Virus record (IMG/VR): IMGVR_UViG_2872152978_000008
From: a virus
Taxonomy: Duplodnaviria > Heunggongvirae > Uroviricota > Caudoviricetes
DNA: 34,309 bases
Strand: one strand, 5' to 3'
Below, in pieces: positions 2,392 through 33,375 of this stretch (position 1 is the first letter of the stretch; each line of letters starts with the position of its first letter). The notes under the pieces are model-generated. The model was not told where the DNA came from. It searched no databases and was given only the letters and a program-made list of their open reading frames with translations. The position numbers and the translations under genes are program-made.

Positions 2392-2577
2392 TTGACCATG
2401 TTTGATTACCAAGTTTCCAAACATCCATATTTTGATGAAGCCTGTCGTGCATTTGCACTGCGCCACAATCTGGTGCAACTGGCAGAACGTGCAGGCATGA
2501 ATGTGCAGATTCTGCGGAACAAGCTGAACCCAGCTCAGCCTCATTTATTAACCGCACCAGAAATCTGGCTGCTTTGA
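2392..2577 (+). pseudogene. cII: CII-like regulator truncated after ~60 aa by IS911
   Basis: [59 protein letters not shown] resembles the N-terminus of 186 CII (~169 aa, recalled). Its TGA stop is the first three bases of the IS911 left inverted repeat. Confidence 0.65.
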
Positions 2578-2646
2578 AGTGGCACACTGAATTTGGCCAC
2601 CTGAACAGAGGTGATATGCTCACCTCAGAACAACACAGGTGCTCCA

Positions 2647-3815
<1,169 letters not shown>

Positions 3816-3857
3816 CCACTTCACGCCAGAGTTTTATTTGAGATCGCAAACAGGGAG

Positions 3858-5984: not shown

Positions 5985-6055
5985 GTAAGCGTACAGCCTG
6001 AACCGTCTGGTCAGAATCTGACGAATTAGACAAAGTGGTGTCCACCAAATAAGTA

Positions 6056-6457
6056 GTGGGAACCAAAGTGTCAGATATGCAGAAAAATGTGAATCCCGGC
6101 AGGCGAAAAGGCTGCCCTAATTATCCTCCCGAATTTAAACAGCAGCTCGTTGCTGCCTCCTGTGAACCCGGGATATCCATCTCAAAACTTGCTCTTGAAA
6201 ATGGCATTAACGCCAATCTGTTGTTCAAATGGCGACAACAATGGCGCGAGGGAAAGCTGCTATTACCTTCTTCAGAGAGCCCCCAGCTACTTCCTGTGAC
6301 TCTCGATGCAGCTGCCGAACAGCCAGAATCGCTCGCAGAGGATCCGGAAACCCTCAGTATCAGCTGTGAGGTAACGTTCCGGCACGGGACGCTCCGCTTC
6401 AATGGCAATGTCAGCGAAAAGCTCCTGACTCTGCTGATACAGGAACTGAAGCGATGA
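6056..6457 (+). CDS. IS66-family accessory protein TnpA (orf1)
   Basis: First of three co-oriented ORFs inside the IS; true start may be the internal Met at ~6077. Confidence 0.7.
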   Translation: MGTKVSDMQKNVNPGRRKGCPNYPPEFKQQLVAASCEPGISISKLALENGINANLLFKWRQQWREGKLLLPSSESPQLLPVTLDAAAEQPESLAEDPETLSISCEVTFRHGTLRFNGNVSEKLLTLLIQELKR

Positions 6458-6801
6458 TCCCGTTACCTTCCGGGACCAAAATTTGGCTGGTTGCCGGTAT
6501 CACCGATATGAGAAATGGCTTCAACGGCCTGGCGGCAAAGGTGCAGACGACGCTGAAAGACGATCCGATGTCAGGTCACGTTTTTATCTTCCGTGGGCGT
6601 AATGGCAGTCAGGTAAAGCTCCTCTGGTCTACCGGCGATGGACTGTGTCTGCTGACCAAACGGCTGGAGCGCGGCCGCTTCGCCTGGCCGTCAGCCCGGG
6701 ATGGCAAAGTGTTCCTCACACCGGCACAGCTGGCGATGCTCCTTGAAGGTATCGACTGGCGGCAGCCTAAAAGACTGCTTACGTCCCTGACTATGTTGTA
6801 A
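6454..6801 (+). CDS. IS66-family TnpB (orf2)
   Basis: 115-aa ORF overlapping orf1 stop by 4 nt (ATGA), typical IS66 tnpB arrangement. Confidence 0.75.
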   Translation: MIPLPSGTKIWLVAGITDMRNGFNGLAAKVQTTLKDDPMSGHVFIFRGRNGSQVKLLWSTGDGLCLLTKRLERGRFAWPSARDGKVFLTPAQLAMLLEGIDWRQPKRLLTSLTML

Positions 6802-6849
6802 GCCTCTTTATCCTGGTCGACGCTGAATGAGCCTGGTAATATACCCGGT

Positions 6850-8387
6850 ATGAGCAGCTCACTTCCTGACGATATCAATGCACTGAAACGTCTCCTTGCC
6901 GAACAGGAGGCGCTGAACCGTGCCCTGCTGGAAAAGCTGAACGAGCGTGAACGCGAAATAGACCATCTGCAGGCACAGCTGGATAAGCTGCGCCGGATGA
7001 ACTTCGGCAGCCGCTCCGAAAAAGTCTCCGTCGTATCGCACAGATGGAAGCTGACCTGAAGGCACTTCAGAAAGAAAGTGATACCCTTACCGGTCGGGTT
7101 GACGACCCGGCCGTGCAGCGCCCGCTGCGTCAAACCCGCACCCGCAAACCGTTCCCCGAATCACTCCCCCGCGATGAAAAACGGCTGCTGCCGGCAGCGT
7201 CATGCTGCCCGGAATGTGGAGGCTCACTGAGCTATCCGGGTGAGGATGCCGCCGAACAGCTGGAGTTGATGCGCAGCGTCTTCCGGGTTATCCGGACTGT
7301 ACGTGAAAAGCATGCCTGTACTCAGTGCGATGCCATCGTGCAGGCCCCCGCGCCTTCACGGCCCATCGAGCGGGGTATCGCAGGACCGGGGCTGCTGGCC
7401 CGCGTGCTGATCTCAAAGTATGCAGAGCACACCCCGCTGTACCGCCAGTCTGAAATGTACGGCCGCCAGGGCGTGGAGCTGAGTCGTTCACTGCTGTCGG
7501 GCTGGGTGGATGCATGCTGCCGGCTACTGTCACCGCTGGAAGAAGCGCTTCAGGATTATGTGCTGACTGACGGTAAGCTCCATGCTGATGACACGCCTGT
7601 CCCGGTGCTGTTGCCAGGCAATAAGAAAACGAAGACCGGGCGGTTATGGACCTACGTTCGTGACGACCGTAACGCCGGGTCAACGCTGGCGCCGGCGGTG
7701 TGGTTCGCTTACAGCCCGGACAGAAAAGGCATCCATCTGCAGACCCATCTTGCGGGGTTCAGTGGTGTACTGCAGGCGGATGCATACGCCGGGTTCAACG
7801 AGCTGTACCGGGATGGCCGGATAACGGAAGCCGCCTGTTGGGCTCACGCCCGCCGTAAAATCCACGATGTGCACGTTCGCACCCCGTCAGCCCTGACGGA
7901 GGAAGCGCTGAAACGGATCGGCGAACTGTACGCCATCGAGGCAGAGATAAGGGGAATGACGGCGGAGCAGCGCCTTGCCGAACGTCAGTTGAAAACGAAA
8001 CCGCTGCTGAAATCCCTGGAAAGCTGGCTGCGTGAAAAGATGAAAACCCTGTCGCGACACTCAGAACTGGCGAAAGCGTTCGCATACGCCCTGAACCAGT
8101 GGCCGGCGCTGACGTACTATGCAGATGATGGCTGGGCTGAGGCGGACAATAATATCGCTGAAAATGCGTTGCGGATGGTCAGTCTGGGCCGCAAAAACTA
8201 CCTGTTCTTCGGTTCGGATCATGGAGGAGAGCGGGGAGCGCTGCTGTACAGCCTGATCGGGACGTGCAAACTGAACGGAGTGGAGCCAGAAAGCTACCTC
8301 CGCTATGTACTTGACGTCATAGCCGACTGGCCGATAAACCGGGTCGGCGAACTGCTCCCCTGGCGCGTAGCACTGCCGACTGAATAA
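6850..8387 (+). pseudogene. IS66-family transposase TnpC carrying a frameshift near 7027-7035
   Basis: ORF 6850-7059 (MSSSLPDDINALKRLLAEQE...) and ORF 7044-8387 overlap in different frames. Adding one base in GTCTCCGTCGT restores a continuous reading ...[18 protein letters not shown].... Confidence 0.75.
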
Positions 8388-8424
8388 CACATCCCCGTCA
8401 ATACGGTTCTTGCTGCACGCTTAC

Positions 8425-9322
8425 CATTGACGGGCGTGGTCTGGCTGGCGAGATCAGCAAGGAAACGGGTAAATCCCTGCGTGATAACGCTGAATACGTT
8501 AATCCCTGGGCGTCTCTGCATCGTGTTCAGCAATTCCGCTTCTTTGGTATTCCAGGGCGTCAGGCTTACCGTGAACTGCGGTTGTTGGCTGGTCAGGCGG
8601 CAAGGCAGCAGGGTGACAAAAAAGCAGGTGCGCCGGTACTGGATAACCCGCGCCTTGATGCCATCCTGGCTGCTGCTGATGCTGGCTGTTTTGCCACCTA
8701 CATTATGAGGCAGGGCGGCGTGCTGGTTCCTCGCAAATATCACTTGATCAGAACCGCTTATGAAATCAATGAAGAGCCGACCGCCTATGGCGATCACGGT
8801 ATTCGTATTTATGGCATCTGGTCACCCATTGCAGAAGGCAAGATCTGCACTCATGCAGTGAAGTGGAAAATGGTTCGTAAAGCCGTTGACGTTCAGGAGG
8901 CGGCAGCCGACCAGGGCGCTTGCGCCCCTTGGACTCGTGGCAATAACTGTCCCCTTGCTGAAAATTTGAACCAACAGGAGAAAGATAAATCAGCTGATGG
9001 GAACCCCAGAACGGACATTACCAGCATGGATGACAAGGAGTTGCACGATTACCTGCACAGTATGAGCAAAAAAGAGCGCCGGGAACTGGCAGCAAGGTTA
9101 CGCCTGGTGAAACCGAAACGGCGTAAAGACTACAAACAGCGAATTACAGACCATCAGCGACTGCAGCTCGTGTATGAGCTGAAGTCCAGAGGATTTGATG
9201 GCAGCGAGAAAGAGGTCGATTTACTCCTTCGCGGAGGCAGTATTCCGTCAGGAGCAGGCCTGCGTATCTTCTATCGGAACCAGCGTTTGCAGGAAGATGA
9301 TCAGTGGCGGAACCTGTATTAA
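8425..9322 (+). pseudogene. A: Replication gene A, C-terminal part
   Basis: Same reading frame as 4460-5984 once the 2448-bp insertion (IS + duplication, a multiple of 3) is removed. Frame reads [31 protein letters not shown]... continuing into ORF 8582-9322. Confidence 0.8.
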
Positions 9323-9414
9323 TTACGCGGGTTAACAATTCGTGCTCTTAATAATACCAGGCATATCAGGCTGATGAACGTAAAAAAACGTTTTACATCA
9401 GTAAGATTATTATA

Positions 9415-9434
9415 TACTGTAAATATAAACAGTG
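9415..9434 (+). promoter_or_regulatory. LexA (SOS) box TACTGTAAATATAAACAGTG
   Basis: CTGT-N8-ACAG with AT-rich spacer, 42 bp upstream of the ATG at 9476, within AT-rich promoter-like sequence. Confidence 0.7.
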
Positions 9435-9475
9435 GTTATGCATGCAGTATTGCGTGTGGTGTCATAGGAGGAAAG

Positions 9476-9664
9476 ATGCAGGACTATTTTTTGGAGTCTT
9501 TGAAGCTCCAGCGCATTGATTTTTTTCTTAAGCTTGTAGCGGCTAGTGAGTGTAGTGATGAAGAGAAGGGGCTGGCTCTGCAGTGGGTTTCTGAATTGAC
9601 TGATGAACTCATGGCAAAAATCAGAACCCACGAATACAACCGCTCAATGGATGTCATCAGCTGA
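9476..9664 (+). CDS. Small SOS-regulated protein, hypothetical (possible Tum-like antirepressor)
   Basis: 62-aa ORF with AGGAGG SD 5 nt upstream and a LexA box in its promoter. The longer track ORF (from 9374) would place the LexA box inside the coding sequence. Confidence 0.5.
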   Translation: MQDYFLESLKLQRIDFFLKLVAASECSDEEKGLALQWVSELTDELMAKIRTHEYNRSMDVIS

Positions 9665-9674
9665 GGTGACTTTT

Positions 9675-9908
9675 ATGCGCATTGAAATAATGATCGATAA
9701 AGAGCAGAAGATTAGCCAGTCTACCCTGGACGCTCTTGAATCCGAGCTTTACCGCAATCTGCGCCCTCTGTATCCCAAAACGGTAATTCGTATCCGCAAA
9801 GGTAGCTCTAACGGTGTGGAACTTACCGGATTGCAACTGGACGAAGAAAGAAAACAAGTGATGAAAATTATGCAGAAGGTGTGGGAAGACGACAGCTGGC
9901 TGCATTAA
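9675..9908 (+). CDS. DinI-family protein
   Basis: MRIEIMIDKEQKISQSTLDALESELYRNLRPLYPK...VWEDDSWLH resembles E. coli DinI (MRIEVTIAK...WESADDWFVSE, recalled); GAGGTG SD upstream. Confidence 0.7.
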   Translation: MRIEIMIDKEQKISQSTLDALESELYRNLRPLYPKTVIRIRKGSSNGVELTGLQLDEERKQVMKIMQKVWEDDSWLH

Positions 9909-10043
9909 GAAACGTTGCTGGCGTCTGAACTAGCTTCTGGCGTCAGCAAGGTTGAACAACGAGCCCTTGCGAGGCGTTAGCTCTGTAGTGCATGTCTATG
10001 CCGCATGAGATCGCATGATCGTTTGAGGATCGTTTTTGCTAAG

Positions 10044-10068
10044 GCCCGCCAGAACTGGCGGGCTTTTG
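10044..10068 (+). terminator. Candidate rho-independent terminator after the SOS operon
   Basis: GC-rich hairpin GCCCGCCAG-AA-CTGGCGGGC followed by TTTTG. Confidence 0.55.
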
Positions 10069-10167
10069 CGTAGATCATGCAGGTGCATGAAAACCACTAC
10101 ATAAAGCGGGCAGGTAATGCTGCCAACTTACTGATTTAGTGTATGATGGTGATTTTAAGGTGCTTGC

Positions 10168-10443
10168 GTGGCTTCCATTTCCATCAGATGTCCTTCCTGC
10201 TCCGCTACTGAAGGCGTGGTGCGTAACGGCAAAAGCACTGCCGGACATCAGCGCTATCTCTGCTCTCATTGCCGTAAAACATGGCAACTACAGTTCACTT
10301 ACACCGCCTCTCAGCCCGGTACGCACCAGAAAATCATTGATATGGCCATGAATGGCGTCGGATGTCGCGCCAGTGCACGCATTATGGGCGTTGGCCTCAA
10401 CACGGTTTTACGTCACTTAAAAAACTCAGGCCGCAGTCGGTAA
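10168..10443 (+). CDS. insA: IS1 InsA
   Basis: [42 protein letters not shown]... is the canonical IS1 InsA. Confidence 0.9.
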
Positions 10444-10865
10444 CCTCGCGCATACAACCGGGCAGTGATGTGATTGTCTGCGCTGAAATGGACGAACAGT
10501 GGGGCTACGTCGGTGCTAAATCACGTCAGCGCTGGCTGTTTTACGCGTATGACAGGATACGGAGGACGGTTGTGGCGCACGTCTTCGGTGAACGCACTCT
10601 GACCACACTGGAGCGTCTTCTGAGCCTGCTGTCGGCCTTTGAGGTCGTGGTATGGATGACGGATGGCTGGCCGCTGTATGAATCACGCCTGAAGGGAAAG
10701 CTGCACGTTATCAGCAAGCGTTACACTCAGCGCATTGAGCGACATAATCTGAATCTGAGACAACATCTGGCAAGGCTGGGACGGAAGTCACTGTCGTTCT
10801 CAAAATCGGTGGAGCTGCATGACAAGGTCATCGGGCATTATCTGAACATAAAACACTATCAGTAA
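10362..10865 (+). CDS. insB: IS1 InsB (expressed as InsAB' by -1 frameshift)
   Basis: -1 frame relative to insA; canonical IS1 InsB sequence. Confidence 0.85.
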
Positions 10866-10889
10866 GTTGGAGTCATTACCAGCGGGCAG

Positions 10890-10910
10890 GCGTGGCGGGG
10901 ATACGATTGC
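10890..10910. other. cos-like motif GGCGTGGCGGGGATACGATTG
   Basis: First 13 nt identical to the 186 cohesive-end sequence as I recall it (GGCGTGGCGGGGAAAGCAT). It sits immediately right of the IS1 target duplication, where GC-rich phage DNA changes to the AT-rich cassette. From memory, not verified. Confidence 0.3.
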
Positions 10911-10976
10911 GCGCTAGGTATAAGTGTGTAAAATAATTCCAAAATAAATCATCACCAATGAAGTGAGAGGGTAATA

Positions 10977-12626
10977 ATGTTAGTCAAGAAAAATAAAAAT
11001 TATAGTTTATATTTTTTAATTACAAATAATCAACAGATATCTGATTCTGGTAATTATATAAAAATAGTCCCATCAAGAAGCGATTGGAATGATTTTGGAT
11101 ATTTGAGTAGAGTCGAAATATCTATTTTTAATAAAAAAGAGTGTAAGGATATAATTTCACTGAATGGTTATATTGGTTTTTTGAATTCAGAGGAGGAACG
11201 AAATGGAAAAGCAGAACTGATAAGGCGAGTGAAAAAAAAGGAAGAATCTAATTTAAAGGATGAGGGGTTTAATGATTATTTTGTCATGCTTCAGGATATG
11301 AATAATTATCGAAGACTAGTAAGATTTTTTGGGGTGAATGAATCCAAATATATATTAAATTTCATTAATGATGTTGTTTCTAAGAAAAGTGACGCTAGTG
11401 CAGAGAATTTGAGGAAAAAAGCAATCTCTTCTGATATCTTTAATAAATCTTTCATTAGAGAGTCTGAGTCGTATTTTACTTTCAAAAATGCAGGAACAGT
11501 TCTTTCCGGTATTCAATATGAGGAGTTGGGTAATTTATCACAGCACATCAAGATTAGCTATTCGAATAAAGTTAATGAAGAAGATGTATCTTATGTTTTT
11601 AATTTTGATCACGAGCATGATTTACCAAAAAGAATTTCCATAATTATAGGCGAGAATGGTGTAGGAAAAAGCCAAACGCTTAGAGAAATCGCATTGGCTG
11701 CGATTAAAGGAAAGGATAATTTGGTGGCTGTAGTTGATTCTAACGGTGTGAGCATTGAAGAACGAATTCAAATTAGTAGGCTCATTGCTTTTTCTCCAAC
11801 AAATGAAAGTAAGTGTTCATTTCCAACCGATAAAAGAATAAAATCATTGATATGGTACAAAAGATTGACTTTAAATCGTGAATCAAAATCCAAATTAAAC
11901 TTGAATGATTTAATAGTGCAACTAGCGAGGAGTAACGACGCTATCGGCTATAATCAAAGGTGGAATATATTTGTTGATGCACTGAGTGTTCTAAATAGTA
12001 ACAACGATTTAGTAATCAAATGTGGCGGTGAAAATTCACCATTTGTTAAATTAAATGAGCTTAATTCTCGAGGCGAAGAATCTAGACTATCATTATATTC
12101 TGAAATTATTCTCTCTGGCGAGCCTTTGAGGCTTATTGAAAATAAATGTTACCCTTTGAGTAGTGGGGAAATATCGTTTATTAAGTTTTGTGTACAAGTC
12201 TGTTTGTATATTGAGAATGGGACTCTTCTATTAATAGATGAGCCAGAAACACATCTCCATCCTTCATTTATTAATAAATTTATGGCATTGCTTGATAATT
12301 TATTAGAAAAGACAGGCTCTTCAGCTATCATAGCAACGCATTCGGTTTATCTTGTTCGGGAGGTTTTTAAGGAGCAAGTGACAATACTCAGAAGACGAGA
12401 TGATGGGGTAATTGTTAGCGAAAAACCGAGATTGAGTACTTTTGGGGCGAATATAGGAAATATCTCATATTTTGTTTTCGGTGAGAGTGAACCAACTCAA
12501 ATTTTAAATAAAGTAAAAAACAATATAATTGCAAAGAATATGTCTTGGGATGATGTTGAATCTAAATATAGCGAGGACTTATCACTTAATGTATTAACTG
12601 CGTTGAGAAATGAAATGGGCAATTGA
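10977..12626 (+). CDS. ABC/AAA15-type ATPase with ~220-aa N-terminal extension (PtuA-like defence ATPase candidate)
   Basis: Walker A GENGVGKSQ (~aa 226), ABC signature-like LSSGE, Walker B LLLIDEPETHLHP, H-loop ATHS. GAGAGGG SD before ATG. Very AT-rich relative to the flanking prophage. Confidence 0.75.
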   Translation: MLVKKNKNYSLYFLITNNQQISDSGNYIKIVPSRSDWNDFGYLSRVEISIFNKKECKDIISLNGYIGFLNSEEERNGKAELIRRVKKKEESNLKDEGFNDYFVMLQDMNNYRRLVRFFGVNESKYILNFINDVVSKKSDASAENLRKKAISSDIFNKSFIRESESYFTFKNAGTVLSGIQYEELGNLSQHIKISYSNKVNEEDVSYVFNFDHEHDLPKRISIIIGENGVGKSQTLREIALAAIKGKDNLVAVVDSNGVSIEERIQISRLIAFSPTNESKCSFPTDKRIKSLIWYKRLTLNRESKSKLNLNDLIVQLARSNDAIGYNQRWNIFVDALSVLNSNNDLVIKCGGENSPFVKLNELNSRGEESRLSLYSEIILSGEPLRLIENKCYPLSSGEISFIKFCVQVCLYIENGTLLLIDEPETHLHPSFINKFMALLDNLLEKTGSSAIIATHSVYLVREVFKEQVTILRRRDDGVIVSEKPRLSTFGANIGNISYFVFGESEPTQILNKVKNNIIAKNMSWDDVESKYSEDLSLNVLTALRNEMGN

Positions 12627-13491
12627 AATGAATAAATTAAAAAGACCTGTTTTTAAAGATTATTCTGCATTTAAAAAACTATCTGCAAATAAGAGATTAA
12701 AACATCATTCTGTTCTGAATGGACAGGATACATTTATACTTAATGCATATAGATCGTACATAAAGAATAAAGGGTATCTTAATGTCAATTCTTGTGGCGT
12801 ATTGAGTAACAATATTGCTGAAGCTTTGAGATATTATTATAACAATCCCGCAAAGTGTTTATCTATAATTGATGATATAAGAGCAGCTAATTCTAACTCT
12901 CTATGTCCAATGTGTGGTTCAATGCATAGCGGGACTTTGGATCATGTTTTACCCAAGGAAAACTATCCAGAATTTTCTTTATTCACTAAGAATTTGGTTC
13001 CTGCTTGCAAATGTAATACTTTCAAAAGTACTACTATAGCTAATTCTGCAGGCCATCGGATGCTGCATCCATATTTTGATAATATATTAAAACAAAGATT
13101 AATATGTGCTAATTTTTCTAAATTAGGGCGAACACCTACAATTGATGTAAAAATCATAATTGACCCAATGTCACCAGAATATAACAATGTTAAGTATCAT
13201 CTTGATAATGTTGTTATCAAGAATAATATTAAGGGGTATTTGTCTGAACAATGGGAGTCGTTTTACTTATATCCTGAGCTTGTTATTAGAGGACTGAATA
13301 AGAGTCTTTCTACTTATAGCGATGTATATGAGTTGTTGACTCGCGAGTTGTTGCTGTTGGATGAAAAACATAAAGGTAAAAATAATTGGAATTCGGTTTT
13401 TGTAGCTGGGTTAATTCGACCTGATGTGATTAGGTGGATACTCTGTGAATTACATTTAGGTAACAGAAGTCCAGACGGTCGTCTCATATGA
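12610..13491 (+). CDS. HNH endonuclease (PtuB-like defence nuclease candidate)
   Basis: CPMCGSMHSGTLDHVLPKENYPEFSLFTKNLVPACKCNTFK carries the CxxC...DH...N...CxCN HNH/zinc-finger signature. Start overlaps the ATPase stop by 17 nt (alternative ATG at 12628), suggesting translational coupling. Confidence 0.75.
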   Translation: MKWAIEMNKLKRPVFKDYSAFKKLSANKRLKHHSVLNGQDTFILNAYRSYIKNKGYLNVNSCGVLSNNIAEALRYYYNNPAKCLSIIDDIRAANSNSLCPMCGSMHSGTLDHVLPKENYPEFSLFTKNLVPACKCNTFKSTTIANSAGHRMLHPYFDNILKQRLICANFSKLGRTPTIDVKIIIDPMSPEYNNVKYHLDNVVIKNNIKGYLSEQWESFYLYPELVIRGLNKSLSTYSDVYELLTRELLLLDEKHKGKNNWNSVFVAGLIRPDVIRWILCELHLGNRSPDGRLI

Positions 13492-13501
13492 TTTTTTGCA
13501 T

Positions 13502-13527
13502 CTTCAGCGTGTATCTGCACGCTGAAG
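13502..13527. repeat. Perfect 10-bp inverted repeat (CTTCAGCGTG-TATCTG-CACGCTGAAG) downstream of the HNH gene
   Basis: Stem-loop 11 nt after the HNH stop; no canonical U-tract on either strand, so terminator function is uncertain. Confidence 0.5.
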
Positions 13528-13647
13528 AAATTCATAAAAACTGCTGCCTATTAATAAATTTTTTTAGCTGAGTTAAAGAACCTCATTTAGTGATTACGTT
13601 AAGTAGCTAGTTTATAACTATCAAATTTAACAATGTTCTCACTTACC

Positions 13648-14628
13648 AATTTATTTCCATCATTCTTTTTTGTAACGGTATTAACTCGTTACGTACAAAC
13701 ACCAGGCTCGCCTTCTCCACATCCCCAAACCCCCGACATTATTAGGCATAATCCCCATCATTTGCGGTGGCACACGATGCGCCGCCATCATGTCATCCCG
13801 GCTCACGTTCTTGATGTTCAGAAACTCATCCTTCGCCGCGACTTCTGACAACGGGATGATCTGAAGCCCGTCCTTTTTGCCGTTAGGCGAGTACATAAAC
13901 AGATTGCGGAAGTTACCTGGTCCTTTGGCGCTTTTCATCGCATTGCGGAGGTTGTTCACATCCTCCTGGTTTTGCGCGGCATCGGTCATGTACATGATGA
14001 AGCCTGCATGACTGCCGTTAATGTAATACTATCGGCGGAACAGCGTGGCGGACTCGTTGAGCAGGGCTGACGGAATGGCAGAAAGGTAACCTGGCAGGCC
14101 GTAGATCTCTTGGTTGATGTCCGGTTCCATCAGATGAAAGATGCTTCCTTTCGTGAACTGATACGGCTGCGTGGTCATGCCGTATTGCACAAACCAGTAG
14201 GTATCCAGGTCTAATCCGCGTCGGGTGTATTTTGCCAGAGCAGGCTCAAGAGCGATGACCTCTCCGAACCGGTTTGTGCGTTTCTCCAGGTAAGCGTTAC
14301 CAAATACCAGATAATCCTGCACAAAACGTGAAAAAGCCTGCTGGCTGAGCAGCGGGTGAGGGATGTAGGTACTGATCAGAATGTTGCATTTCACCGCAAT
14401 TGGTGAACTGTGATGCACGGCGGCGCGGAAGGTGCGCGCCAGTCCGTCAAAACTCACTGGCGGCTCATACCAGCGATCTGTCTGTACGCATTCCACATAG
14501 TCCAGTAGTTCACGGCGGTCCAGAACCGGAACGGGATCGCCGAAGCTGAATGCTTCGGCTGAAGTCTGGTTTTTATGCTGGGTCTGTTTCGTCGCCGCAG
14601 CGCGGTTCTTCTTACTCTTTCCCATCAA
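13648..14628 (-). pseudogene. Q: Portal protein gpQ with in-frame TAG (14029-14031) and a probable 1-bp deletion near 13727-13729
   Basis: ORFs 14029-14628 and 13681-13995 share a frame: ...ATLFRR*YYINGSHAGFIMYMTD.... Downstream the frame decays to GGLGMWRRRAWCLYVTS*, while adding one T restores a protein-like GGFGDVEKASLVFVRNELIPLQ... continuation to ~13648. Confidence 0.8.
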
Positions 14629-16391
14629 AAAATCTCCACAATATTGCTGGTATTGGCGGACTCGCCCTGCAGCGGTTCGTTAAACAGTGCGTGCATTGTT
14701 GCCCAGGCCAGATCGGCATGGCTGGCTTCTTCGCTGCGGCTGGCTTCATAGGTCGGGCGGTTGCCGCTGGCGGTGGTGGCGCGACGGATTGCCATGAATG
14801 ACTGCGCAATGTCGGTGTGCCCGGCGTCAAACTCAAGACGGCGGTGGCTGATAATGTCGTAGGCCTTGAGTACCAGGGCGTTTTTAACGTTGGGGTTGTA
14901 GACAAACTCCCGGACGGCAGGAAAAAACGCTTTCACGTTCTCGTAAACCCCGTGACCAACGCCGGTTGAGTCGATGCCGATATAGGTCACGTTGTACTGT
15001 TCAGTCAGTTTTTTGATGGCGTAAGCCTGGGCGCGAAAGTCCATTCCGCGCCACTGGTGACGCTCAAGAATGCGGAACTTACCGCCTGGCACGGCTGGCG
15101 GTGCCACCACCACGCATCCGGCGCTGTCGCCGTTCTGCGTACCTTTTGCCGGGTCATAACCGATCCACACTTCGCGCCAGCCAAACGGGCGCAGGGCCAG
15201 TGCATGAAAGTCGGTCCAGACTTCCCAGCTGTCCACCATGCACGCCTGCAATTCGCTGAGCGGGAACACGGACGCGAGATCGTCCACGAACTCGCACATC
15301 AGCAGGTTCTGGTATTCGTCAGGGCTGTACTCCATGCGCAACTGGTCAAGGTCGAACAGGTTACAGGCGCCGCGCACCGCATCTTCCACGGTGACTATCT
15401 GGCGGTATTGCCCGTCTGCGCACAGCAGGCCGGGGGCCAGATTGCTGTGGGACAGGTCGATGTCCACCTTGTCAGCTTTGTTGCGCCCACGGTTGAACAG
15501 CGCACCGGACCAGAACGGATAAGCACTGTGGGTCAGACTGGATGGTGTGGAAAAATAGGTCTGCCGCCATTTCTTGTGAATAGCCATACCAGAAGCCACT
15601 TTGCGTAGCTCCTGAAATTTCGGTATCCAGAAATATTCATCCAGATACAGGTTACCGTGATAACTCTGGGCAGTGCGGGCATTGGTGCCGAGGAAATACA
15701 GTGTGGCCCCGTTGGGAAGCACCATCGGATCGCCTTTCAGCTCCACCTCCACTTCTTTGGCAAAGTCGATGATGTACTGTTTGAAGACGTGGGCCTGTGC
15801 CTTACTGGCAGAAAGGAAAATCTGGTTACGTCCGGTAAGCAGGGCGTCAATCAGGGCTTCACGGGCAAAATAGAAGGTCGCGCCGATCTGGCGTGACTTC
15901 AGCAGGTTGCGGATGCGGTTGGTTTTTCCGGCTTCCCACCAGTGGCGCTGGTAGTTGAACATGGAGGAATGGAAATTTTTTTCCAGCTTCTCAATCTGGT
16001 CATCGGTGAAAACATTCTTTTCAGGCTGACGGCGTGGGCCTTTGTTGCGGTTGGCGACGTTAGGGTTTAAGTCGGCTTCGTTGCCGCCATTGTTAAACTT
16101 GCCGATCCGCGCGTGGCGCTCAGACTGGCGCGCCAGCAGGTCAATATCTTTGAAATCTTTCCCTTCTTTGTGCTCCTTCATGATGAGCTGGCAGTAGCGT
16201 GCGGCGGTGGTGAGCTGCATCTGATCCAGAGGCCCATAGTCACCCCACTTGTCGCGTTTTTTCCAGCTGTAAACGGTTGCAACTTTCTCGCCCAGCATTT
16301 CAGCAATGCGGGCTACGCGGTATCCCTGAAAGTACAGCAGCATGGCCTGCCGACGGGGATCGAGATCTGCGGGTGTCAGTGTGGTGTTCAT
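14625..16391 (-). CDS. P: Terminase large (ATPase) subunit gpP
   Basis: 588-aa ORF, size and sequence consistent with P2 gpP; divergent from O as in P2. Confidence 0.9.
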   Translation of the reverse strand: MNTTLTPADLDPRRQAMLLYFQGYRVARIAEMLGEKVATVYSWKKRDKWGDYGPLDQMQLTTAARYCQLIMKEHKEGKDFKDIDLLARQSERHARIGKFNNGGNEADLNPNVANRNKGPRRQPEKNVFTDDQIEKLEKNFHSSMFNYQRHWWEAGKTNRIRNLLKSRQIGATFYFAREALIDALLTGRNQIFLSASKAQAHVFKQYIIDFAKEVEVELKGDPMVLPNGATLYFLGTNARTAQSYHGNLYLDEYFWIPKFQELRKVASGMAIHKKWRQTYFSTPSSLTHSAYPFWSGALFNRGRNKADKVDIDLSHSNLAPGLLCADGQYRQIVTVEDAVRGACNLFDLDQLRMEYSPDEYQNLLMCEFVDDLASVFPLSELQACMVDSWEVWTDFHALALRPFGWREVWIGYDPAKGTQNGDSAGCVVVAPPAVPGGKFRILERHQWRGMDFRAQAYAIKKLTEQYNVTYIGIDSTGVGHGVYENVKAFFPAVREFVYNPNVKNALVLKAYDIISHRRLEFDAGHTDIAQSFMAIRRATTASGNRPTYEASRSEEASHADLAWATMHALFNEPLQGESANTSNIVEIF

Positions 16392-16533
16392 GGCACAAAC
16401 CTACAGCCTTGAATGAAGGCTTTCCCCGCCTGCGGTTTGTGTGGTTGTCGGTACAAATACCGCGCATTGTTTCACTGCCCCTATCACCGCAACCATAAGG
16501 CTCCAGTAAGTTTTTTCTAACGGAGCACGGCTC

Positions 16534-17367
16534 ATGACAGTGAAAGCAAAGCGTTTTCGCATCGGGGTGGAAGGTGCCACCACCGACGGACGCGAAATCC
16601 AGCGTGAATGGCTGGAACAGATGGCAGCCAGCTATAACCCGGCGGTGTATACCGCGCTGATTAACCTTGAGCACATCAAGTCTTATCTGCCGGACAGCAC
16701 CTTTAACCGCTACGGCAAGGTGACGGCGCTGTTTGCTGAAGAAATCACGGAAGGTCCGCTGGCAGGCAAGATGGCGCTGTATGCTGACGTTGAGCCAACG
16801 GAGTCCCTGGTGGAACTGGTGAAAAAAGGCCAGAAATTATTCACCTCTATGGAAGTCAGCCCGAAGTTCGCTGATACGGGCAAAGCCTACCTGGTCGGCC
16901 TGGCTGCCACTGATGACCCTGCCAGTCTGGGCACTGAAATGCTGACATTCAGCGCCAGTGCAGCCCATAACCCGCTGGCAAACCGCAAGCAGAATCCCGC
17001 CAATCTCTTTACCGCCGCAGAGGAAACGGTGATCGAACTGGAAGAAGTCCAGGACGACAAACCGTCCCTGTTTGCCCGCGTCACGGCGCTGTTTACCAAA
17101 AAAGAGCAGTCCGATGACGCCCGGTTCTCTGATGTGCATAAGGCCGTGGAGCTGGTCGCCACTGAGCAGCAGAACCTGAGCGCACGCACCGAAAAATCCC
17201 TGTCTGAGCAGGAAGAACGCCTGTCTGAGCTGGAGACTGCCCTGCAGGCACAGCAAACCGCCTTTAACGAACTGGTGGACAAGCTGAGTCATGAAGACAG
17301 CCGCCAGGACTACCGCCAGCGTGCAACAGGCGGTAACGCCCCCGCTGACACTCTGACCAATTGCTGA
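16534..17367 (+). CDS. O: Capsid scaffolding protein gpO
   Basis: 277 aa with Ala/Glu/Gln-rich coiled-coil C-terminal half, upstream of the major capsid gene. Confidence 0.85.
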   Translation: MTVKAKRFRIGVEGATTDGREIQREWLEQMAASYNPAVYTALINLEHIKSYLPDSTFNRYGKVTALFAEEITEGPLAGKMALYADVEPTESLVELVKKGQKLFTSMEVSPKFADTGKAYLVGLAATDDPASLGTEMLTFSASAAHNPLANRKQNPANLFTAAEETVIELEEVQDDKPSLFARVTALFTKKEQSDDARFSDVHKAVELVATEQQNLSARTEKSLSEQEERLSELETALQAQQTAFNELVDKLSHEDSRQDYRQRATGGNAPADTLTNC

Positions 17368-21884: not shown

Positions 21885-22278
21885 ATTGCAGAAGGTGGAC
21901 GACTGGCTGAGTGCATTATTGGCGAATCTGGAGCCAGCCGCAAGAAGCCGCATGATGCGCCAGCTGGCGCAGGAACTGCGCCGGACACAGCAGCAGAACA
22001 TCAGGATGCAGCGCAATCCAGATGGCAGCAGTTATGAGCCGCGCAGGGTAACAGCACGCAGCAAAAAGGGGCGCATCAAACGTCAGATGTTTACAAAGCT
22101 GCGCACCACAAAATACCTGAAAACTGCAGCCAGCGCCGATTCTGCCAGCGTACAGTTTGAAGGTAGGGTGCAGCGCATTGCCCGTATTCACCATTACGGC
22201 TTGAGTGATCGCGTCAGTCGAAAAGGTATTTATACCATCTATGCGAAAAGGCAGTTATTAGGTTTTAATGTCCGGTAA
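21877..22278 (+). pseudogene. S: Tail completion protein gpS, 3'-truncated by IS1
   Basis: ORF runs into the IS1 left end and stops on a TAA inside the IS1 terminus (...RQLLGFNVR*). Confidence 0.7.
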
Positions 22279-22328
22279 TGCTGCCAACTTACTGATTTAG
22301 TGTATGATGGTGATTTTAAGGTGCTTGC

Positions 22329-22604
22329 GTGGCTTCCATTTCCATCAGATGTCCTTCCTGCTCCGCTACTGAAGGCGTGGTGCGTAACGGCAAAAGCACT
22401 GCCGGACATCAGCGCTATCTCTGCTCTCATTGCCGTAAAACATGGCAACTACAGTTCACTTACACCGCCTCTCAGCCCGGTACGCACCAGAAAATCATTG
22501 ATATGGCCATGAATGGCGTCGGATGTCGCGCCAGTGCACGCATTATGGGCGTTGGCCTCAACACGGTTTTACGTCACTTAAAAAACTCAGGCCGCAGTCG
22601 GTAA
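22329..22604 (+). CDS. insA: IS1 InsA (copy 2)
   Basis: Identical translation to copy 1 InsA. Confidence 0.9.
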
Positions 22605-23026
22605 CCTCGCGCATACAACCGGGCAGTGATGTGATTGTCTGCGCTGAAATGGACGAACAGTGGGGCTACGTCGGTGCTAAATCACGTCAGCGCTGGCTGT
22701 TTTACGCGTATGACAGGATACGGAGGACGGTTGTGGCGCACGTCTTCGGTGAACGCACTCTGGCCACACTGGAGCGTCTTCTGAGCCTGCTGTCGGCCTT
22801 TGAGGTCGTGGTATGGATGACGGATGGCTGGCCGCTGTATGAATCACGCCTGAAGGGAAAGCTGCACGTTATCAGCAAGCGTTACACTCAGCGCATTGAG
22901 CGACATAATCTGAATCTGAGACAACATCTGGCAAGGCTGGGACGGAAGTCACTGTCGTTCTCAAAATCGGTGGAGCTGCATGACAAGGTCATCGGGCATT
23001 ATCTGAACATAAAACACTATCAGTAA
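22523..23026 (+). CDS. insB: IS1 InsB (copy 2)
   Basis: As copy 1, with a T-to-A substitution (TLTTLERL to TLATLERL). Confidence 0.85.
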
Positions 23027-23036
23027 GTTGGCAGCA

Positions 23037-23519
23037 TTACCATGCAGCCCTCACAATATAGTTAAAAGCGACATTTCGTGGGCGTGTTTCATTCGCACCT
23101 GCAGGTTTAGTCGTTGCCGCAACAACACCACCCTCTGTAATAGCCGGGTTGGGAATTGGGTAATTATCGAAGTCAATGGCCGGAGACAGGGGCGTGATTT
23201 GTTTTAAAATCGTGGTGCCTGTAAAACTTTCCAGAGTCTGGTCGTTAGTTCGTGAAGTCCAGATTCCCCAATAGTGGTTATGACTGACAATCGCACCGTC
23301 CTGAAGCGTTAATAATCCCCTTCCGTTATCCACTCCACGTCCGTCATCCCAGCCACGAATAAACTCACCGCGTAAATCAGGCAATTTATTTGTCGGGTAA
23401 GCCTTTGCCAGTTCCGGGTATTCTTCAGCAGAAAAAGCCGCACCATTGCATTTCAGCCAGCCTGTCGGCGGAGTGGCTGAAGGCCACGGAACAGGCACAC
23501 CAACAGGTAATGCAGAGCC
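23037..23519 (-). pseudogene. Orphan tail-fibre variable C-terminal segment, clipped by IS1
   Basis: ...GWLKCNGAAFSAEEYPELAKAYP...NVAFNYIVRAAW is a typical tail-fibre C-terminal variable domain. It has no constant N-terminal part, lies inverted next to an invertase, and its 3' end runs into IS1. Confidence 0.6.
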
Positions 23520-23545: not shown

Positions 23546-23600
23546 TGCAGAGATAATGGCTAACTGGCATCATCCCCGGTTTTTATTCAGGGGATTGATC

Positions 23601-24167
23601 ATGCTTATTGGCTATGTACGCGTGTCAACAAATGACCAGAACACCGATTTGCAACGTAATGCACTGAACTGCGCGGGATGTGAGCGGATTTTTGAGGATA
23701 AAATCAGTGGCACTAAGCCCGACAGACCGGGGCTTAAAAAACTGCTCAGGACACTATCGGCAGGAGACACGCTGGTTGTCTGGAAGCTGGACAGACTGGG
23801 ACGCAGTATGCGGCATCTTGTTACGCTGATAGAAGAGTTGCGCCAGCGTGGTGTGAATTTCCGAAGCCTGACTGACAGTATTGATACCAGTACCCCAATG
23901 GGCCGTTTCTTTTTTCACGTCATGGGGGCTCTGGCTGAAATGGAACGTGAACTGATAGTTGAACGTACCAGAGCAGGGCTGGCTGCAGCTCGTGCCAAAG
24001 GCAGAGTAGGTGGACTCCGTCCTAAGTTGACCACCGAACAGTGGGCACAGATTGGACGTTTACTCGAGGCCGGAGAATCAAGACAGCGTATTGCACTGAT
24101 TTTTGATGTGGGCGTTTCTACCATTTATAGAAAATTTCCGGCGAATGAGAGCAATGAATCGCCCTGA
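23601..24167 (+). CDS. Serine DNA invertase (Hin/Gin/Pin/Cin family)
   Basis: MLIGYVRVSTNDQNTDLQRNAL...GDTLVVWKLDRLGRSMRHL... is the N-terminal resolvase catalytic domain with the active-site Ser in VRVSTNDQ; C-terminal HTH. Confidence 0.85.
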   Translation: MLIGYVRVSTNDQNTDLQRNALNCAGCERIFEDKISGTKPDRPGLKKLLRTLSAGDTLVVWKLDRLGRSMRHLVTLIEELRQRGVNFRSLTDSIDTSTPMGRFFFHVMGALAEMERELIVERTRAGLAAARAKGRVGGLRPKLTTEQWAQIGRLLEAGESRQRIALIFDVGVSTIYRKFPANESNESP

Positions 24168-31689: not shown

Positions 31690-33375
31690 TTATCCTAATC
31701 CTGGCCATACCATGACGATGATTGTCCCTGCCAGCGTCAGCAGGACGTTGGCGATTGCGTAGGTGCCCGCATAGCCCAGCGCAGGGATGTTACTGCGAGC
31801 TGTATCACTGATGATCTCCATTGCCGGCGCGCAGGTGCGTGCGCCCATCATTGCGCCGAACAACAGTGCGCGGTTCATTCGCAATACATAAGCACCGAAC
31901 AAGAAACAGATAACCACGGGCACAAGACTGACAATTAATCCGGCAATCAACATCTGACCGCCAATCGCGGCCAGGCCGTTATTAATACCGCTACCGGCGC
32001 TCAGACCAACGCCTGCCATAAACACCATCAAGCCGAACTCTTTCACCATGCTTAATGCACCTTGCGGAATGTAACCGAAGGTCGGGTGGTTAGCACGCAT
32101 AAAGCCCAGCATAATTCCGGCGAATAACAACCCGGCAGCGTTCCCCATGCCGAAACTGAATGTGCTGAACTGGAAGGTGATCATCCCGATCATCAGCCCA
32201 ATAACAAAGAAGGCGCAAAATGCCAGCAGGTCAGTGACCTGGCTGTGAATCGAGATAAAGCCGATGCGATCGGCAATGGTTTTTACGCGACGGGCATCAC
32301 CGCTGACTTGTAAAACGTCACCTTTGTTAAGCACGACGTTGTCATCTATCGGCATCTCAATCTGGCTACGAATGACGCGGTTAAGGAAGCAACCGTGATC
32401 GGTCAACTTCAGTTGTGCGAGACGTTTACCTACAGCGTTATGGTTTTTAACGACCACTTCTTCAGTGACGATACGCATGTCGAGAAGGTCACGATCGAAA
32501 ACTTCTTTACCGTTACGGAAGCTGGGATCGAGTCGGGCATGGGCGTCGGGATAGCCTACCAACGCTATTTCATCGCCCATTTGTAGCACGGCATCACCGT
32601 CTGGATTTGCCAGAATCCCGTTACGTCGAATACGTTCAATGTAGCAGCCGGTTTGTCGATAAATACCCAGTTCACGCAGATTTTTGCCGTCGGTCCAGGC
32701 CACCAGCTCCGGGCCGACGCGATAGGCGCGGATCACCGGTAAATAAACCTTACGGTTGGCATCAGTGTCCAGGCCACGTTCGCGGGCGATTTGCTGGGCG
32801 CTGGTCTGTAAGTCCTGATGCTGCAATTTCGGCAAGTAACGCGCACCAACAATCAAACTCACCAGACCGATTAAATAGGTTAAGGCATACCCGAGGCTCA
32901 GATTATCCAGTGCCAGTGAGAGCTGCCTGCTTTCCATGCCGGAATGACGCAGTGTATCGCCAGCACCGACCAGAACCGGTGTCGACGTCATAGAGCCTGC
33001 TAACATACCGGCCGTCAGGCCAATATCCCAGCCAAACAGCTTACCTAACCCTAAGGCGATCACCAGCGCACTGCCAACCATCACCAGTGCTAACATTAGG
33101 TAATTTTTCCCATCGCGAAAAAAAATGGAAAAAAAGTTCGGTCCGGCTTCGACCCCGACGCAGAAAATAAACAGCATAAAGCCAAGATTAAGCGCATCGG
33201 TGTTAATGCTGAAATGTTGTTGGCCTAATAACAGCGATACGACTAAAACGCCAATGGAATTACCCAGTTGGATCGAACCAAGTCGTAACTTTCCGAGACA
33301 TAGCCCAAGCGCGAGGACCACAAATAATAACAGAATGTAATTCCCATTTAACAATTCGGCGACGTTTATATTCAC
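31690..33375 (-). CDS. ybjL: Putative AAE-family transporter YbjL
   Basis: 561-aa membrane protein with two TrkA-C-like soluble domains between transmembrane halves; recognised as E. coli YbjL. Confidence 0.9.

Follow-up and report, generated by a model that had tools for sequence, protein, structure and literature searches.

The window, by which we mean the whole 34,309-nt stretch of DNA analysed here, carries a prophage of the P2 family (Peduoviridae). Its central part holds, from left to right, a DinI-like gene, an IS1 element, a GC-rich sequence resembling the cohesive-end site (cos) of phage 186, an AT-rich cargo segment with two genes, a damaged copy of the portal gene Q and the terminase genes (Table 1). 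The DinI-like gene, to which the DinI protein of a relative maps by tblastn (9675-9905), is also annotated in L005, a locus of E. coli UPEC-245U/190328 (NZ_CP049845, cos at about 4233172, reverse strand) in which prophage and cassette match those of the window at 99.6% identity and IS1 is missing from cos. Both subunits of the cognate terminase, gpP and gpM, are encoded in the same element by full-length genes, and Terminase_6N and Terminase_6C Pfam matches for gpP were obtained on a locus identical to the window. Between the DinI-like gene and cos lies a terminator-like hairpin, whose columns (10044-10067) are moderately conserved among 140 distinct cos regions of relatives. The consensus terminator scan did not flag this hairpin because its T-run is only 4 long, and the counts from the promoter and terminator scan of 9900-13700 were not above those from shuffled sequences. 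A left-arm hairpin was also considered as a feature of the site and rejected, since the P2 stem (CCGCCC...GGGCGG) is retained neither in 186 nor in the window.

Table 1. Features of the prophage around cos, in window coordinates.
Feature	Position	Strand	Basis
IS66-family element, 2.4 kb, interrupting replication gene A	5986-8424		HTH_Tnp_1, TnpB_IS66 and DDE_Tnp_IS66 ORFs
DinI-like gene, last conserved phage gene left of cos	9675..9908	+	Pfam DinI, E=1.3e-22
GC-rich hairpin GCCCGCCA-GAAC-TGGCGGGC, then TTTT, terminator-like	10044..10067	+	read from sequence
Left 29 bp of cos core, TGCATGAAAACCACTACATAAAGCGGGCA	10084..10112	+	alignment with P2, P4, 186 and SEN8 junctions
Left copy of IS1 target-site duplication, AGCGGGCA	10105..10112	+	single copy in L005
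IS1, 768 bp, terminal inverted repeats	10113..10880	+	InsA/InsB ORFs 10168-10443 and 10362-10865
Right copy of duplication, AGCGGGCA, core positions -8 to -1, adjoining the cohesive-end sequence	10881..10888	+	
Homologue of the 19-nt cohesive-end sequence, GGCGTGGCGGGGATACGAT	10889..10907	+	16/19 to annotated 186 cos
Right 7 bp of cos core, TGCGCGC	10908..10914	+	conserved in P2, P4, 186 and relatives
AT-rich, variable cargo (GC 0.318) of the cos-Q hotspot	10915..13648	+	homology breakpoints against 160 loci
AAA_21/AAA_15 ATPase, PADLOC PDC-M01A, PtuA-like	10977..12626	+	PADLOC E=3e-55; Pfam AAA_21
Partner protein, 293 aa, PADLOC PDC-M01B	12610..13491	+	PADLOC E=1e-33
Portal gene Q, pseudogene	13599..14628	-	base-by-base comparison with intact 343-aa L005 gene
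Terminase large (ATPase) subunit gpP, 588 aa, full length	14625..16391	-	ORF; L005 annotation
gpM homologue, terminase small/endonuclease subunit, 216 aa	18446..19096	+	99.6% collinear with L005 'terminase endonuclease subunit'
Second IS1, orientation as first, 764/768 identical, without target duplication	22274-23041		

The original prediction had recognized the first 13 nt of the 186 cohesive end in a motif at 10890-10910 and considered this motif as a possible packaging site. A string search of the whole window found the 21-mer GGCGTGGCGGGGATACGATTG once, at 10889-10909; the motif is therefore present, and its coordinates were off by one. In the 186 record (NC_001317), cos is annotated as bases 1-19, GGCGTGGCGGGGAAAGCAT, which the 19-mer of the window does equal over the first 13 nt; the positions that differ are 14, 16 and 17 (ATACGAT in the window against AAAGCAT in 186). 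The identity is 14/19 to P2 (GGCGAGGCGGGGAAAGCAC), 14/19 to P4 and 18/19 to the putative cos of SEN8. The GC-rich 19-nt sequence of the P2 family, GGCG(A/T)GGCGGGGAAAGCA(C/T), occurs here and at no second place in the window. Likewise, the family pattern GGCGNGGCGGGGN8GCGCGC had its sole match in the whole window at 10889-10914 with 0 mismatches, the chance expectation being 0.03 matches at <=2 mismatches in dinucleotide-preserving shuffles. The pattern search revealed no second cos-like sequence elsewhere in the window, nor between the stop of the HNH-like gene and Q, an interval in which the original prediction had also seen none.

When the core around this 19-mer (described below) was compared with deposited phages by blastn, the last base in the genome records of SEN8, SEN1 and EtG proved to be the homologue of 10888, and the first base in that of Smp131 the homologue of 10889, the ends of at least SEN8 and Smp131 having been chosen by their depositors by analogy with P2; the SEN8 record labels its site only as a 'putative cos site'. 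Core similarity, synteny and genome-record ends all agree with the proposed packaging site and, judged from the sequence, 10889-10907 is the cos homologue of a P2/186-family prophage. The cohesive-end function of this 19-mer variant is predicted from its homologues, which would place the top-strand nick before 10889 and the bottom-strand nick after 10907.

Two variants of cos exist in this clade: a majority form with ...ATACGAG followed by CGCGCGC, and a minority form with ...ATACGAT followed by TGCGCGC, to which the window (10889-10914) belongs and which is found in 6/147 surveyed loci. The two bases that differ between the variants straddle the predicted bottom-strand nick; besides the window, the loci at which variants were noted are L010, L111, L123, L134, L152, L005 and L006. 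In a single IMG/VR scan with an exact 28-mer of left arm plus cos, none of 118 loci with the variant of the window had P4-type genes, and 112 were P2-like.

The similarity to P2-family phages extends well beyond the 19-mer. The joined ends of P2, P4 and 186 have in common a block of 29 bp on the left, the 19-mer and 7 bp on the right, over which P2 and its otherwise unrelated satellite P4 are identical at 52/55 positions. This block is equivalent to the "55-bp core" that Ziermann and Calendar (1990) described; in the passages of later papers that cite that work, the core is conserved in P2-family phages and needed for packaging (PMC3931495; PMC5694545; PMC9594776). The indispensable part of the left arm was judged from conservation together with such secondary citations. 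The relative L005 displays the core before insertion, reading ...TGCATGAAAACCACTACATAAAGCGGGCA, then GGCGTGGCGGGGATACGAT, then TGCGCGC..., with one copy of AGCGGGCA. This pre-insertion core is identical to that of 186 at 46/55 positions, to P2 at 43/55, to P4 at 42/55 and to SEN8 at 52/55. In 186 and PSP3, which have identical cos sequences, TGCGCGC directly follows the 19-mer as it does here, and the 186 left arm, TGCATnAAAACC...AAAG(C/T)GGGCA, is conserved with the window. P2 and P4 share the 29+19+7 architecture; the requirement for the core was demonstrated in these two, and would hold for the variant of the window by homology. In 140 distinct cos sequences, from Enterobacterales to Pseudomonas, the information content was 1.5-1.8 bits per position from -29 to +26, counted from the start of the 19-mer, and no more than 0.17 bits at +27 and beyond. 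Within the left arm, conservation peaked at -8 to -1 (1.79 bits). Positions -29 to -9 had 1.51 bits per position and lie within the sole sequence common to P2 and the unrelated satellite.

The IS1 element is inserted within this conserved core, between positions -9 and -8, rather than beside it. The original prediction had IS1 9 bp from cos; the adjacency was correct, and the distance from the end of IS1 to the first cos base is 8 bp. The element has the length of an IS1 (~768 bp), inverted repeats, InsA and InsB ORFs (91 and 167 aa) and a duplicated target within the 8-9 bp typical of the element. The inverted-repeat consensus of IS1 is GGTAATG...CATTACC, and a Pfam DDE_Tnp_IS1 match was obtained on an identical public locus (L182). 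The insertion shifts 21 conserved bases, positions -29 to -9 (TGCATGAAAACCACTACATAA), 776 bp from the cleavage site. In the resulting allele, 35/55 core positions and 9/29 left-arm positions still match; a contiguous 55-bp core is present in the ancestral allele represented by L005 and absent from the window. Since 21 of the 29 left-arm bases are split off, the window holds a disrupted P2-family cos. Longer cos flanks raise the transduction of P2 cosmids >1000-fold (PMC9594776). Together with the strong conservation of positions -29 to -9, this points to an IS1-split cos that is probably no longer usable as a packaging signal. The insertion at cos is absent from 9/10 sister loci that carry the identical ATPase. 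Recurrence of IS1 at cos was not found in the two other E. coli prophages that have IS1 in the hotspot, in which it is located elsewhere within the cargo.

To the right of the core, the GC content of 10915-13648 is 0.318, against 0.47 left of cos. This segment is the AT-rich cassette between cos and Q that was seen originally, and the ATPase and HNH-like genes are indeed found there. The ATPase matches PtuA models in PADLOC at 1e-31 and, better, PDC-M01A at 3e-55. Its partner is named HNH endonuclease by RefSeq in L005; no Pfam match, HNH included, was obtained for the partner itself, and the best 25 of its 38 PADLOC matches listed are all PDC-M01B models. Septu combines the PtuA ATPase with the PtuB HNH nuclease; the ATPase of the window matches PtuA, whereas the matches listed for its partner are to PDC-M01B. 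Both cassette proteins thus match the candidate defence system PDC-M01, and the ATPase plus HNH-like pair is best filed, from these profile matches, as PDC-M01, a Septu-like candidate defence system.

The borders of the cassette were defined by comparison with relatives. In most loci the left homology limit falls at 10913-10917, where the core ends on its right side. On the other flank, P2, 186 and most relatives become alignable again at 13649-13668, some 17 codons within Q, so the cassette seems to bring its own AT-rich C-terminal tail of the portal protein. Alignment of 13492-13649, within the interval that the original prediction proposed for comparison (13490-13700), detected no similarity to the cos-Q spacers or terminators of P2 or 186. 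These junctions fit a cassette that probably arrived by homologous recombination between P2-like genomes, one exchange having occurred within Q and the other in the cos core or to its left. The last ~17 portal codons (13599-13668) are AT-rich and cannot be aligned as DNA with P2, 186 or most relatives. The portal tail keeps a similar residue pattern (...INKLVSENIVKFDSYKLAT against ...NDWLGQEVIRFKNYSLD...).

The original prediction regarded a position between cos and Q as unusual for cargo. We surveyed 160 loci encoding relatives of the portal protein, 80 from bacterial assemblies (one genome per species) and 80 from IMG/VR. The cos pattern (<=2 mismatches) was found in 147/160 loci, always between the A/DinI side and Q, so that the window and these 147 loci share the order A, DinI, cos, cargo, Q, P. 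The distance from cos to Q exceeded 700 bp in 121/147 loci (53/73 genome loci and 68/74 viral loci), an 82% that describes relatives of one portal clade with cos located by pattern, and not all Peduoviridae. A short distance of <=300 bp, as in P2 and 186, was found in 12/147. The long intervals had a median GC of 0.36, and 118/121 of them contained an ORF of at least 150 aa; their longest ORFs belong to 61 protein families. Matches among the cos-Q cargo include retron RT-Toprim, Old, AbiL, AriA, PtuA, TIR, GmrSD, PIN and DprA. More than 700 bp was present on both sides of cos in 53 loci. The relative L006 (NZ_CP148579, 3600-8900) has two hypothetical genes in the DinI-cos interval and, in the cos-Q interval, the ATPase/HNH pair found in the window.

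Deposited phages also have genes between cos and the portal gene, among them SEN8, Cartapus (a DUF4145 protein) and phiCTX (the ctx toxin gene). Dodd and Egan (1996) and Nakayama (1999), as these are cited in PMC5694545, had earlier suggested that the interval between cosL and Q is a hotspot, and Rousset (2022) described the whole gpA-gpQ region adjoining cos as a defence hotspot. The cos-proximal hotspot, with the retrons Ec67 and Ec86, the ctx gene of phiCTX and the gpA-gpQ cargo, is hypervariable, AT-rich, enriched in defence genes and bounded by A/DinI and Q, and the window, with its candidate defence pair, fits this description: variable genes lie at a fixed position beside cos, with breakpoints at 10913-10917 and 13649-13668. 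The cargo position is therefore not unusual in this group; it is unusual only against the two model phages P2 and 186. To the known hotspot the present analysis adds only the left breakpoint at the core edge (+27) and the right junction of this cassette about 17 codons inside Q.

The arrangement can be compared with that of well-known phages. In 186, as in the window, cos lies between the tum/DinI region and the portal gene; 186 differs in having 176 bp with the terminator tW between cos and the portal gene, orf97 to the left of cos and a core that no IS1 interrupts. P2 and 186 have 167-177 bp with a terminator and no gene between cos and Q, and carry their accessory genes across cos (old/tin in P2, orf97 in 186). 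In the satellite P4, the cargo (gop, beta, cII) begins just right of cos, like that of the window, whose 19-mer P4 and P2 match at 14/19. By its cos core, the closest deposited phage is SEN8 (Felsduovirus, NC_047753), with a hypothetical protein and an HNH endonuclease between cos and portal. The Escherichia phage Cartapus (NC_070909) places its accessory gene as the window does. The cargo genes of SEN8 and Cartapus differ from those of the window, and their 19-mers end in ...ACGAG followed by CGCGCGC, against ...ACGAT followed by TGCGCGC in the window. In lambda, cos is the site that terminase recognizes and nicks, producing 5' cohesive ends and defining the ends of virion DNA. Lambda cos has a cosQ-cosN-cosB organization with 12-nt ends and an IHF/R-site cosB, and is packaged from concatemers; it is a functional analogue only, having no sequence similarity to the site in the window, which we do not assign to that class.

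The prophage itself is defective: Q is a pseudogene, gene A is interrupted and baseplate genes are deleted. Relative to L005, Q carries three lesions: a nonsense mutation (14031) and deletions of 1 bp (near 13730) and 4 bp (near 13649). The nonsense mutation is present in 10/10 sister loci and the 1-bp deletion in 2/10, while the 4-bp deletion and IS1 at cos occur in only 1/10, the locus identical to the window. The lesions of Q were thus gathered stepwise, and this distribution among sister loci indicates that the insertion at cos was a late event in an already non-functional prophage. GenBank CP026840.1 is identical to the window over positions 6977-16626 and is probably its source genome; CP000036.1, which we take to be Shigella boydii Sb227, contains the same prophage. 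The ATPase protein is unchanged in many assemblies and is indexed in identical form in 1221 blocks. The IS66-family element has ~9 bp of overlap at its junctions in gene A, and its transposase ORF is 447 aa in the window and 512 aa in sister loci.

Beyond 22273, where gpS ends and the second IS1 follows, the window is no longer collinear with L005, and the baseplate genes V, W, J and I and most of H consequently appear to be deleted. Downstream of the second IS1, to about 25500, lie a minus-strand tail-collar/tail-fibre fragment, a Hin/Cin-type invertase gene (23556-24167) and two ORFs into which the sheath gene is broken. A composite transposon, in which the two same-orientation IS1 copies would flank cos, the cassette and the head genes, was considered and rejected, since the first IS1 has its own target duplication. 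The early region at 2575-3820 differs from its counterpart in L005 (7135-8969 there) despite 99.6% identity elsewhere, a sign that another module, located between CII and the methylase/A region, may have been exchanged. A host permease gene with Asp-Al_Ex and TrkA_C domains (ybjL-like, 31690-33375, minus strand) lies beyond the prophage end; the other flank in a relative is rcdA (ybjK), and the attachment site accordingly lies between these genes.

We interpret the locus as the relic of a P2-family cos, split by IS1 and situated next to a known cargo hotspot, and give this reading as a whole a probability of about 0.9. In an intact relative, replicated circular DNA would be recognized at the ~55-bp core by gpM and gpP, which would introduce two nicks spaced by 19 nt, and cleavage is predicted to leave the 5' overhangs GGCGTGGCGGGGATACGAT. 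The virion DNA would then start with cos, cargo, Q and P and end with DinI, the hairpin and the left core. The cargo hotspot starts at +27, and the Septu-like candidate defence pair was probably swapped in by homologous recombination, joining at the cos core on one side and within the 3' end of Q on the other. The insertion of IS1 into the core of a prophage already without its portal gene would most likely have abolished recognition by terminase.

That the original 13-nt match was a chance GC-rich sequence, with the true packaging site elsewhere or absent, has next to no probability. A match of thirteen nucleotides would alone be weak evidence, but the agreement covers the 55-bp core, the pattern occurs once against 0.03 expected and at the same position in 147 syntenic loci, four phage records break exactly at the junction of 10888 and 10889, and the window has no other cos-like sequence. 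We find it hardly more credible that, for P2-like phages, the cos-Q interval is an unusual and perhaps new place for cargo. The absence of any gene there from P2 and 186 invites this view, against which stand cargo in that interval in 121/147 relatives and on both sides of cos in 53 loci, the genes that SEN8, Cartapus and phiCTX have there, and the earlier description of the interval as a hotspot by Dodd and Egan (1996) and Nakayama (1999), as cited in PMC5694545, and its place within the gpA-gpQ region of Rousset (2022).

It is unlikely, too, that cos still works despite IS1, positions -8 to +26 sufficing for the terminase of a superinfecting relative, by which the chromosome would be nicked or packaged. 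The target duplication restores the 8 bp beside the nick, where conservation within the left arm is highest (1.79 bits), and the 19-mer and the right 7 bp are untouched. However, P2 terminase prefers monomeric circles, so that a single chromosomal cos would be a poor substrate. Strong conservation extends to positions -29 to -9 (1.51 bits in 140 sequences), which lie within the only sequence common to P2 and P4, and longer flanks gave >1000-fold P2 cosmid transduction (PMC9594776). A selected insertion, that is, a domestication in which IS1 in the core shields the host from cleavage or hijacking by superinfecting P2-like terminases while the defence cassette is kept, is very improbable. IS1 does lie precisely within the 55-bp target, and the neighbouring cassette genes are still full-length ORFs. 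Yet the insertion is found in 1/10 sister loci with the identical ATPase, the host lineage is rich in insertion sequences (two copies of IS1 and one IS66-family element in this prophage alone), and the different cargo positions of IS1 in two other prophages give no sign of recurrence. Both this type of site and its hotspot are known, and the element that split it, in a prophage undergoing decay, is a common insertion sequence.

The value of these results is mainly for annotation, since the site is of an already known kind and current understanding is unchanged. The unit to look for in such genomes is the 55-bp cos core, beyond the 19-mer alone. The decay of this prophage forms a stepwise series in which packaging functions were lost while the defence cassette stayed intact. 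The cargo hotspot of P2-like phages spans both sides of cos, its right-hand part beginning one base past the core, and the location of cos fixes where the ends of the virion genome would lie in this prophage family.
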